Below, in pieces: positions 45,339 to 46,503 of a stretch of DNA of 64,000 nucleotides. Origin of the DNA: Escherichia coli (GTDB lineage: Bacteria; Pseudomonadota; Gammaproteobacteria; Enterobacterales; Enterobacteriaceae); NCBI RefSeq assembly GCF_003334315.1, contig NZ_QOWR01000021.1; one strand, given 5' to 3'. Below the pieces are notes generated by a model. The model made no database searches. It was not told the origin of the DNA and saw only the letters and a list, made by a program, of their open reading frames with translations. Numbering within the stretch: position 1 is the first letter of the stretch; each line of letters opens with the position of its first letter. Made by a program: the position numbers and the translations under genes.

Positions 45339-46187
45339 ATGAACGGCTTACTTCGTATCCGTCAGCGTTACCAGGGGCTTGCCCAGAGTGATAAAAAACT
45401 GGCGGATTATCTGCTGCTACAACCTGATACGGCGCGCCATTTAAGCTCTCAGCAACTGGCCAACGAAGCCGGAGTCAGTCAGTCCAGCGTCGTGAAGTTC
45501 GCGCAAAAACTCGGCTATAAAGGTTTTCCGGCGCTTAAGTTGGCGTTGAGTGAAGCGCTGGCAAGCCAGCCGGAATCACCCTCCGTGCCCATTCATAACC
45601 AAATCCGCGGTGATGATCCGTTACGGCTGGTCGGCGAAAAACTGATTAAAGAAAATACTGCCGCTATGTACGCAACGCTAAACGTTAATAGTGAAGAGAA
45701 ACTGCATGAATGCGTAACAATGTTGCGCTCTGCGCGGCGGATAATTCTGACCGGTATTGGCGCTTCGGGTCTGGTGGCGCAAAACTTTGCCTGGAAGCTG
45801 ATGAAGATTGGCTTCAATGCTGCCGCAGTGCGCGATATGCATGCGCTACTCGCAACAGTACAGGCGTCGTCCCCTGACGATCTGTTATTAGCCATTTCCT
45901 ACACCGGTGTACGACGCGAGTTAAACCTGGCGGCAGATGAGATGCTGCGAGTGGGCGGAAAAGTGCTGGCGATTACCGGCTTTACTCCGAATGCCCTGCA
46001 ACAGCGTGCTTCTCATTGCCTGTATACCATTGCCGAAGAACAAGCGACAAACAGTGCTTCAATCTCTGCTTGTCACGCTCAGGGAATGTTAACGGATTTG
46101 CTGTTCATTGCGCTGATTCAGCAGGATCTGGAACTGGCACCAGAACGTATTCGTCATAGTGAAGCGCTGGTGAAAAAACTGGTCTGA
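45339..46187 (+). CDS. yfhH: RpiR/MurR-family transcriptional regulator YfhH (HTH plus SIS domain)
   Basis: HTH then SIS phosphosugar-binding domain; start set to MNGLLRIRQRY (282 aa). Confidence 0.88.
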   Translation: MNGLLRIRQRYQGLAQSDKKLADYLLLQPDTARHLSSQQLANEAGVSQSSVVKFAQKLGYKGFPALKLALSEALASQPESPSVPIHNQIRGDDPLRLVGEKLIKENTAAMYATLNVNSEEKLHECVTMLRSARRIILTGIGASGLVAQNFAWKLMKIGFNAAAVRDMHALLATVQASSPDDLLLAISYTGVRRELNLAADEMLRVGGKVLAITGFTPNALQQRASHCLYTIAEEQATNSASISACHAQGMLTDLLFIALIQQDLELAPERIRHSEALVKKLV

Positions 46188-46242
46188 GTAAAGAATGCGC
46201 GTATAATGCCCGCCCGGTTTGTGTTGTTTTGAGAGTTTCCTT

Positions 46243-46503
46243 ATGGCGTTGTTAATCACTAAAAAATGCATCAATTGTGATATGTGTGAACCCGAATGCC
46301 CGAATGAGGCGATTTCAATGGGAGATCATATCTACGAGATTAACAGCGATAAGTGTACCGAATGCGTAGGGCACTACGAGACACCAACCTGCCAGAAGGT
46401 GTGCCCGATCCCCAATACTATTGTGAAAGATCCGGCGCATGTCGAGACAGAAGAACAGTTGTGGGATAAATTTGTGCTGATGCACCACGCGGATAAAATT
46501 TAA
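46243..46503 (+). CDS. yfhL: Small 4Fe-4S ferredoxin-like protein YfhL
   Basis: Two CxxCxxCxxxCP motifs; start set to MALLITKK (86 aa). Confidence 0.9.

Follow-up and report, generated by a model that had tools for sequence, protein, structure and literature searches.

The described system closest to the one analyzed here is that of MurR (YfeT), the Escherichia coli murQP repressor, an RpiR/AlsR family protein that combines an HTH_6 with a SIS domain. As a tetramer, MurR occupies a pair of adjacent repeats in a divergent spacer, where it shuts off both murQP and its own gene until N-acetylmuramic acid 6-phosphate (MurNAc-6-P) releases it (PMC9177960). Its two operators lie ~32 bp apart in the spacer that also holds its own promoter, and N-acetylglucosamine 6-phosphate (GlcNAc-6-P) is bound weakly as well (PMC9177960). 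Other RpiR regulators (AlsR/RpiR and HexR/YebK in E. coli, RccR/HexR in Pseudomonas, and NanR in Vibrio and Streptococcus) share the HTH_6 + SIS fold and its phosphate-binding serines, and control adjacent sugar-phosphate genes via palindromic operators, with allose/allulose-6-phosphate, 2-keto-3-deoxy-6-phosphogluconate (KDPG), or N-acetylmannosamine 6-phosphate (ManNAc-6-P) as ligands. Here, we analyzed yfhH, which lies in a 64-kb stretch of the E. coli chromosome (hereafter the window, to which all coordinates refer) and encodes a 282-residue HTH_6 + SIS protein (45339 to 46187, + strand) that is 20 to 23% identical to these other regulators. YfhH is still an uncharacterized E. coli transcription factor in the searchable literature, and no sugar-phosphate catabolic gene adjoins it in E. 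coli, where its neighbors are pgpC, yfhL, and shoB. The initial annotation had described yfhH as an RpiR/MurR-type HTH-SIS regulator with no catabolic operon alongside, and Pfam domains, RefSeq annotation, and the list of open reading frames (ORFs) all bear this out. It had also held that the ligand and regulon are not predictable from context, which stands for E. coli taken alone but not across 80 orthologous loci, where an etherase/permease operon, a deletion scar, a conserved pair of operator-like sites, and a MurR-like pocket predict an ancestral operon, its operators, and a likely ligand.

Since the neighborhood in E. coli offers no target, the comparison with other species carries the argument. 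A scan of one genome per species yielded 80 yfhH loci, all in Enterobacteriaceae, with YfhH proteins sharing 75 to 99% identity. While the gene order mltF-tadA-pgpC/yfhH-yfhL-acpS-pdxJ-recO is conserved, the pgpC-yfhH gap is variable: 1) ~210 bp in Escherichia, Klebsiella/Raoultella, Pluralibacter, Trabulsiella, Yokenella, and Pseudocitrobacter, 2) ~2.39 kb in Citrobacter, Enterobacter, Lelliottia, Leclercia, Silvania, Kosakonia/Phytobacter, and Pseudescherichia, and 3) 1.1 to 1.5 kb in a few other loci. The 2.39-kb segment consists of two genes on the strand opposite to yfhH, which encode a 297-residue protein and a 456-residue phosphotransferase system (PTS) enzyme IIBC (EIIBC). We named them murQ2, for a murQ-like MurNAc-6-P etherase gene, and PTS2, for a MurP-like EIIBC gene. 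murQ2 is present in 50 of the 80 loci (43 with PTS2 and 7 alone). In all of these, it sits between pgpC and yfhH in divergent orientation to the latter, as in the divergent murQ-PTS type operon of MurR. The placement expected of an RpiR regulator, beside sugar-phosphate genes, is therefore found at 50 of 80 orthologous loci and is lacking in E. coli. These include direct orthologs in Salmonella (STM2570-STM2572, encoding PTS EIIBC, MurQ, and YfhH), Citrobacter, and Enterobacter (80 to 86% identity), which have the operator-like sites and flanking genes of E. coli (mltF-tadA-pgpC and yfhL-acpS-pdxJ) with the structural genes still there. Both murQ2 and PTS2 are intact in Salmonella enterica, while S. 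arizonae has the etherase gene and a fragmented PTS gene.

The etherase is well matched by its family model, the PTS protein less well. The murQ2 product passes the MurQ equivalog model TIGR00274 (415 bits in Citrobacter and 414 in S. arizonae, for a cut-off of 302) and conserves both catalytic glutamates, E83 and E114, in four genera. The best model for the PTS2 product, which displays the NCMTRVR phospho-Cys motif of EIIB, is MurP (NF007152) at 331 bits, under the cut-off of 516 and followed by the sucrose model at 315 bits. Since the identities to E. coli MurQ, MurP, and MurR are 54%, 38%, and ~35%, respectively, this is a second, paralogous system rather than a relocated copy of murRQP. 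In operon-bearing genera, pgpC begins 4 bp past the PTS stop codon, which suggests that the two were probably cotranscribed ancestrally. The two systems also differ in distribution. MurR orthologs are patchy (Escherichia, Citrobacter sp. Awk 4, C. sedlakii, some Salmonella, K. aerogenes, and Serratia ficaria, then 51 to 57% identity in relatives such as Hafnia), whereas YfhH occurs throughout the sampled Enterobacteriaceae. Judging from this distribution, the MurNAc system that is widespread in Enterobacteriaceae is the yfhH-linked one, and the textbook murR-murQP system of E. coli is the patchy one, which matters for carrying knowledge of cell-wall recycling from E. coli to other enterics. 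The closest MurR orthologs outside Escherichia are those of Citrobacter sp. Awk 4 and C. sedlakii (82% and 79% identity, respectively), and the yfhH-linked genes are deleted or truncated in these species. This hints at paralogous displacement of one MurNAc system by the other, in three taxa including Escherichia that were matched by species name and not from the same assemblies.

How the operon disappeared from E. coli can be read from the DNA. The 208-bp pgpC-yfhH spacer aligns as two collinear pieces of the corresponding Citrobacter interval (locus L008). Positions 45100 to 45235 match 3582 to 3739 of L008, which is the start of pgpC plus the last ~41 PTS codons, and positions 45237 to 45358 match 5897 to 6020, which is the control region from the etherase start to yfhH. 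The junction falls at 45235 to 45237, where 2,157 bp of L008 (3740 to 5896) are missing, i.e., the whole of murQ2 with its start codon and ribosome-binding site, and PTS2 except its last ~41 codons. Both pieces are also recovered when the spacer is compared to Salmonella, C. sedlakii, Enterobacter, and Phytobacter. A spacer of 207 to 208 bp is found in all five species-level representatives of Escherichia, which makes this a single deletion event in the ancestor of the genus. What is left of PTS2 is a 3'-end relic (45131 to 45235, − strand) with a conserved core (45170 to 45216) that is 83 to 91% identical at the DNA level to Citrobacter, Salmonella, and Phytobacter, and that gives a tblastn match to residues 417 to 440 of the Citrobacter PTS protein at 67% identity. 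The relic can also be recognized in translation, since a 45-residue ORF of E. coli (45091 to 45228, − strand) contains IVAGKVMIYLLGYVVA where the Citrobacter PTS protein has IVAGKVMFYLLGYLVA. The conservation of the relic (91% to Phytobacter over 47 nt) is higher than expected of noncoding DNA, and this piece was spared by most partial deletions as well as by the full deletions of the Escherichia and Pluralibacter/Trabulsiella types.

The alternative polarity, in which the other genera gained the operon, was rejected on three grounds: the two-piece scar, phylogenetic nesting, and relics in deep lineages. In a neighbor-joining tree of seven flanking proteins, Escherichia falls within the operon-bearing clade, beside Citrobacter and Salmonella. 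In addition, the spacers of Trabulsiella and Pluralibacter contain relics of both the PTS 3' core and the 5' coding part of the etherase gene (GCGTATCCTGTTGATTAAA, which reads FNQQDT on the other strand), and the presence of such relics in deeper-branching lineages implies that the sampled family had the operon ancestrally. At least three full deletions, recognizable by their different junctions, took place independently, in Escherichia, in the Pluralibacter/Trabulsiella type, and in Klebsiella/Raoultella; since the latter shows no significant relic by BLAST, its loss is deduced from its position in the tree. At least five other lineages lost just the PTS gene. Ancestral linkage of the operon to yfhH, followed by secondary loss in E. 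coli, is thus almost certain. In two further loci, the pgpC-yfhH gap is without murQ2 and PTS2. In Enterobacter sp. Bisph1 (L071, 4627 to 5871), a gene for a 414-residue major facilitator superfamily (MFS) transporter on the yfhH strand replaces murQ2/PTS2, while Kosakonia quasisacchari has a 1.57-kb gap with no murQ2 or PTS2 match; both palindromes described below are kept in each. The 1.5-kb segment of Enterobacter sp. Bisph1 was considered as a YfhH target and rejected, since its MFS gene is unrelated.

The control region that outlived the operon contains two 13-bp palindromes, which are predicted YfhH operators. The distal one, GAATTTTTAATTC (45238 to 45250), lies 14 nt upstream of the murQ2 start codon in operon-bearing genera, and the proximal one, GAATATAAAATTC (45270 to 45282), overlaps the putative yfhH core promoter, as would suit autoregulation. 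In the whole window, GAAT-N5-ATTC occurs at these two palindromes only, 32 bp apart. Two occurrences per 64 kb are not unusual by count, since 35 of 100 shuffled sequences reach two; the point is that both sit here. Across genera, the palindromes form islands of conservation within a diverging spacer. With a weight matrix built from 40 sites in 20 genomes, the distal and proximal palindromes score 22.5 and 23.4 bits, respectively, for a next best score in the window of 13.1, and only three further sites reach 13 bits in 925 kb of DNA flanking the 80 loci. Exactly two sites are found in all 50 murQ2-bearing loci, the spacing is 31 to 33 bp in 66 of 66 two-site loci, and the distal palindrome is kept in 17 of the 29 loci that lost murQ2. 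Two adjacent inverted repeats in a divergent spacer, as described for MurR, are thus present, E. coli included, and would be occupied by YfhH. It is likely that these palindromes are its operators.

The promoters around the palindromes have fared differently in Escherichia. In most genera, a TATAAT or CATAAT −10 hexamer lies directly upstream of the proximal palindrome, so the yfhH start site would fall within the operator. In Escherichia (loci L002 to L006), the equivalent of TATAAT is GGCAAT, GACAAT, AGCTAT, or TTTGAT, and the DNA between the palindromes (45251 to 45269) has diverged. Similarly, Citrobacter and Enterobacter have a leftward TATTAT beside the distal palindrome where E. coli has TGCCAT. 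Palindromes that stay perfect while the old promoters drift suggest that the operators are under the tighter constraint. A promoter scan found promoter-like hexamers on both strands overlapping the proximal palindrome in E. coli, but since such matches arise at about the chance rate, all promoter assignments here are putative. A terminator scan returned weak matches only.

The protein itself is a paralog of MurR. YfhH matches the HTH_6 model over its full length (PF01418, residues 1 to 77, E = 4.7e-30) and SIS (PF01380, residues 128 to 258, E = 3.2e-32). It scores 572 bits against its own NCBIfam equivalog (NF008590, cut-off 355) and 171 bits against that of MurR (NF012026), for which the cut-off is 408; the AlsR and HexR models score lower still. 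With this score, and 34 to 36% identity to E. coli MurR, YfhH is a paralog of MurR and not an ortholog. An exhaustive search of cluster representatives showed that YfhH orthologs form a single cluster at 50% identity, the next full-length relatives being ~40% identical. The solved structure closest to YfhH is the SIS/ligand-binding domain of MurR (7EN5/7EN7, E = 5e-28), and the recognition helices are near-identical (ISQSSIVKFAQKLG in MurR and VSQSSVVKFAQKLG in YfhH).

To predict the ligand, we mapped the crystal contacts of MurR with MurNAc-6-P on an alignment of YfhH orthologs, out-group relatives, and E. coli HexR and AlsR. By this alignment, five of the eight direct contacts are identical in YfhH: S146 (S143 in YfhH), K159, which binds the lactyl carboxylate (K156), H171 (H168), S190 (S187), and Y191 (Y188). 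The other three are substituted, conservatively at S192 (T189 in E. coli and Citrobacter, S in the remaining orthologs) and K195 (R192), while G145 becomes A. S143, S187, and T189 of YfhH would supply the phosphate-binding Ser/Thr residues characteristic of the family. Among the other aligned positions, S277 corresponds to S274, S244 to S241 in E. coli and to A in the remaining orthologs, and T175 and T281 to A and V, respectively. AlsR and HexR differ at the equivalents of K159, Y191, K195, and S244, and HexR also at that of H171. The genomic context of the nearest out-group regulators (39 to 42% identity) points the same way, since they adjoin peptidoglycan-sugar genes: two loci have genes passing both the MurQ and MurP equivalogs, one of them with genes for NamZ and a glycoside hydrolase family 3 (GH3) protein as well, a third has a MurQ-type gene, and another a GH3 gene. 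On balance, MurNAc-6-P is the best prediction for the YfhH ligand. Since K159 and H171 occur in every member of the sub-clade, and since the PTS2 product falls short of the MurP cut-off, a closely related phosphosugar is conceivable as well.

Loss of the operon has not relaxed selection on yfhH. Pairwise ratios of nonsynonymous to synonymous substitution rates (dN/dS) are 0.019 within Escherichia (dS ~0.68) and 0.029 within Klebsiella/Raoultella, both without the operon, and 0.032 in Citrobacter and 0.028 in Enterobacter, which have it. These values are comparable to those of pgpC, yfhL, and tadA. The ORF is intact in 78 of the 78 loci that yielded the gene at full length (two more gave partial matches), and both the scar and yfhH are found at ≥80% query coverage in all 5,426 complete E. 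coli genomes. Both palindromes score near the maximum in Escherichia. Such strong purifying selection implies at least one further role beyond autoregulation.

We propose, as the probable reading of these findings, that YfhH is a MurR-like, MurNAc-6-P-responsive repressor that was orphaned by the loss of its operon. YfhH would have been the dedicated repressor of a second, ancestral MurNAc-utilization operon of Enterobacteriaceae, consisting of murQ2 followed by PTS2, between pgpC and yfhH and divergent from the latter. By analogy with MurR, a YfhH tetramer would sit on the two 13-bp GAAT-N5-ATTC palindromes, about three helical turns apart, repressing both the operon and its own gene until MurNAc-6-P enters the SIS domain and releases it. 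The ancestor of Escherichia then lost ~2.16 kb, with all of murQ2 and most of PTS2, keeping the control region, the ~100-bp PTS relic, and yfhH; MurNAc catabolism in E. coli rests with the unlinked, paralogous murR-murQP. Unlike those of MurR, the structural genes linked to yfhH have been deleted in E. coli, and YfhH there would most likely autoregulate via the two operators that it has kept. In addition, any leftward transcription that still enters pgpC-tadA may be gated by YfhH. In this proposal, linkage, scar, conservation of operators and pocket, and selection are observations, from which we infer DNA binding, repressor polarity, ligand, and present targets.

Several points weigh against the proposal. 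1) A dN/dS of ~0.02 is too low for an autoregulator with no other target. 2) Four taxa (L018 and L020 to L022) have lost both operators and kept yfhH intact, which argues for unlinked targets. 3) The drift of the −10 hexamers away from consensus leaves promoter use in Escherichia in doubt. 4) At the main peptidoglycan-recycling loci of K-12, the matrix detected nothing of operator grade, with no match at or above 13 bits in 152 kb covering murRQP, anmK, nagZ, nagK, mltG, nagE-BACD, ampDE, ampG, pgpA, hexR, and alsR, the best match being 11.9 bits in the AT-rich nagB-nagE spacer. 5) The sugar transported by PTS2 could differ from MurNAc, in view of its model scores and its 38% identity to MurP. 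6) The presence of K159 and H171 throughout the ~40%-identity sub-clade argues for a MurNAc-6-P-like ligand without proving it. 7) The searchable literature holds no binding, ligand, or expression experiment on YfhH. From the first two points, a function of YfhH that lies outside the operon/autoregulation model probably exists.

One candidate for such a function is the neighboring pgpC-tadA pair, and it is possible, although not likely, that YfhH now controls these genes. The deletion would have fused the YfhH-controlled leftward promoter region to pgpC, and a cell-wall-turnover signal would tune expression of PgpC and the tRNA deaminase. This is compatible with the orphaned-repressor proposal as regards origin and differs on what keeps yfhH alive. 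Read-through from a YfhH-controlled promoter was probably ancestral, given the 4 bp between PTS2 and pgpC; after independent deletions, Escherichia and Klebsiella/Raoultella keep the distal palindrome with only pgpC to its left; the proximal palindrome of E. coli shares bases with a promoter-like match directed leftward; and a 2018 paper had proposed a YfhH-PgpC link, speculating from adjacency only. However, pgpC has a promoter-like motif of its own inside the relic in most lineages. In E. coli, this candidate pgpC-tadA promoter is an extended −10-like element, TGTTAGGCT (45180 to 45188, − strand), ~45 nt upstream of the pgpC start. The corresponding TGnTA(G/A)GCT can be read in most of 14 spacers and is degenerate in P. 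gergoviae, Pseudocitrobacter, and K. oxytoca (TGTTACCCT/TGTTACGCT/TGCTAAGCT), and the PTS relic thus probably holds the pgpC-tadA promoter, judging from these motifs. Moreover, an independent regulator, NsrR, is bound there in vivo, with a chromatin immunoprecipitation peak 64 bp from the pgpC start, and RNA polymerase holoenzymes with sigma-E and sigma-32 bind the pgpC-yfhH spacer in genomic SELEX (systematic evolution of ligands by exponential enrichment). Also against control by YfhH, the old leftward −10-like hexamer is now TGCCAT in E. coli, and Pluralibacter, Trabulsiella, and Yokenella have no distal palindrome, yet kept yfhH. Finally, tadA is essential, and is unlikely to depend on a repressible promoter.

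Cross talk with MurR is another possible reason for keeping yfhH, one that we consider doubtful. Here, YfhH would bind the murR-murQ operators and/or MurR the yfhH palindromes, giving murQP two MurNAc-6-P sensors. In addition to the near-identical recognition helices and a ligand pocket that appears common to both proteins, the site that scores highest with the YfhH matrix across the 10 kb of the murRQP locus, GGGATATATGATTCC, falls within the 163-bp murR-murQ spacer. In K-12, this spacer contains ATGATTCC twice (L082, 4690 to 4729), 32 bp apart as are the YfhH palindromes, the second copy being part of GGGATATATGATTCC, a GGNAT-N5-ATNCC near-palindrome. The GGAAT half-site and the similar spacing suggest that MurR and YfhH may share an operator architecture. 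Nevertheless, the score of GGGATATATGATTCC, 6.0 bits, is far under the 22 to 23 bits of native sites, and the murR-murQ spacer lacks the GAAT-N5-ATTC that the YfhH palindromes carry; an inverted-repeat finder detected nothing in it. In addition, Klebsiella, Raoultella, and Pluralibacter keep yfhH even though MurR orthologs are patchy in the family. Cross-regulation of MurR/murQP could nonetheless be part of a broader scenario, which we regard as speculative and improbable, in which YfhH, as a second sensor of MurNAc-6-P (cell-wall turnover), was retained after its operon had gone, in at least three independent full deletions, owing to its control of another process. That process may be pgpC-tadA read-through, coupling envelope phospholipid synthesis to peptidoglycan turnover, MurR/murQP cross-regulation, or unlinked targets. 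If true, a pathway-specific repressor would have been re-used as a stand-alone signaling regulator after loss of its pathway.

A third alternative concerns the signal rather than the targets. The ligand and lost substrate might be a related phosphosugar, e.g., another 3-O-ether or N-acetyl-hexosamine-6-phosphate, which E. coli may no longer make. The PTS2 product would fit, since it is nearly equidistant from the MurP and sucrose-type models, as would the changes in the YfhH pocket relative to MurR (G145 to A, T175 to A, K195 to R, and T281 to V) and the weak affinity of MurR itself for GlcNAc-6-P (PMC9177960). We consider this rather unlikely, because the etherase encoded alongside has both catalytic glutamates and scores as a MurQ equivalog, YfhH conserves the lysine that contacts the lactyl group, and out-group relatives are found beside MurQ/MurP-equivalog genes and namZ. 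Furthermore, named taxa that have MurR as well, Escherichia, Citrobacter sp. Awk 4, and C. sedlakii, have decayed yfhH-linked genes, which suggests redundancy between the two systems, albeit in three taxa compared by species name. The last alternative, that yfhH has lost its function in E. coli and is decaying into a pseudogene, is hardly credible and was rejected: its operon is gone, the flanking −10 hexamers have drifted in Escherichia, and the recycling loci searched have no operator-grade site, but the gene has a dN/dS as low as that of pgpC, yfhL, and the essential tadA, an intact ORF in every fully recovered locus, two near-maximal palindromes, and complete retention, with its scar, across the E. 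coli pan-genome.

We did not find the orphaning history of yfhH described in the searchable literature. For the Salmonella genes, two papers there mention yfhH in tomato-colonization transcriptomes and one other mentions STM2570, and no functional study was found among them. YfhH is one of a few dozen K-12 transcription factors with no listed function, and it now has a testable predicted ligand, MurNAc-6-P, and two predicted operators. Loss of the operon provides an evolutionary reason why a target of yfhH has been missing in E. coli, and Salmonella, Citrobacter, and Enterobacter are organisms in which the regulator sits with its operon intact. Why a repressor with no apparent target stays under strong purifying selection is a modest but genuine question regarding the persistence of regulators whose pathway is lost.

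The rest of the locus was laid out using the ORF list and RefSeq annotation transferred from an identical strain. Upstream of yfhH are purL (− strand), mltF (42381 to 43937, +), tadA (43934 to 44437, −), and pgpC/yfhB (44495 to 45130, −), whose product passes TIGR01545 in agreement with its annotation. Downstream are yfhL (46243 to 46503, +), which encodes an 86-residue protein passing the equivalog of YfhL-family di-[4Fe-4S] ferredoxins, shoB (46697 to 46777, −), the ohsC antitoxin small RNA (47100 to 47176, +), which forms a type I toxin-antitoxin pair with shoB, and acpS (47198 to 47578, −), followed by pdxJ, recO, era, rnc, and lepB. The Rfam scan of the window detected ohsC (107 bits) as its sole match and nothing near yfhH. 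Annotation, equivalogs, and Rfam thus agree with the initial annotation that yfhH is flanked by a phosphatidylglycerophosphatase gene, a ferredoxin gene, and a toxin-antitoxin locus.

The interval highlighted there, 45339 to 46503, corresponds exactly to yfhH plus yfhL, and the pairing that this implied is coincidental. yfhL was rejected as a co-regulated partner of YfhH because it has a conserved promoter of its own that moves with it. This promoter comprises a TATAAT (46202 to 46207) followed by GCCCGCCC, a GC-rich, discriminator-like stretch, and it looks like a strong promoter, possibly under growth-rate or stringent control. The block upstream of yfhL (46196 to 46242), AATGnGCGTATAATGCCCGCCC..TTTCC(T)TGATG, is near-invariant in all genera, and these ~45 nt stay with yfhL when islands of 1.5 to 3.2 kb follow yfhH. 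One such island of ~3.2 kb occurs at the same spot between yfhH and yfhL in K. oxytoca (L056, 6888 to 10066) and S. enterica (L085, 5888 to 9065), and contains genes for an ApbA/2-dehydropantoate-reductase-like protein, an MFS transporter, and a divergent LysR regulator. A gap of equal size is found at that spot in K. spallanzanii (L058), L075, and Phytobacter massiliensis (L080). This insert was considered as a YfhH target and rejected, since it comes with its own LysR regulator in addition to the transporter and the ApbA-type reductase.

At the 3' end of yfhL, a half-palindrome similar to the predicted YfhH operators, AAATTTAATATTC (13.1 bits), overlaps the yfhL stop codon and is followed by a hairpin with a 13-bp stem (−13.6 kcal/mol), which looks like the yfhL terminator (46493 to 46530). 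Among the 80 loci, this site reaches 13 bits in two Escherichia loci only (L003 and L006), and it probably reflects chance in AT-rich DNA. The shoB/ohsC pair and its AT-rich surroundings make up a ~700-bp segment (46504 to 47197) found in Escherichia only, shoB being seen in loci L002 to L006 only. In many loci outside the genus, only a few bases separate the end of acpS from yfhL (2 nt in Citrobacter L007), and the segment is a genus-specific insertion between yfhL and acpS that is unrelated to yfhH. A 4-kb query around yfhH-yfhL is matched in 5,426 of 5,426 complete E. coli genomes. In 162 of these, less than 80% of the query is covered in one place, with the scar and yfhH still covered in all, and the variability behind these partial matches probably sits in the shoB/ohsC segment. 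In E. coli PSS-13 (NZ_AP027704.1), an IS1B element is inserted within the 4-kb tadA-pdxJ interval.

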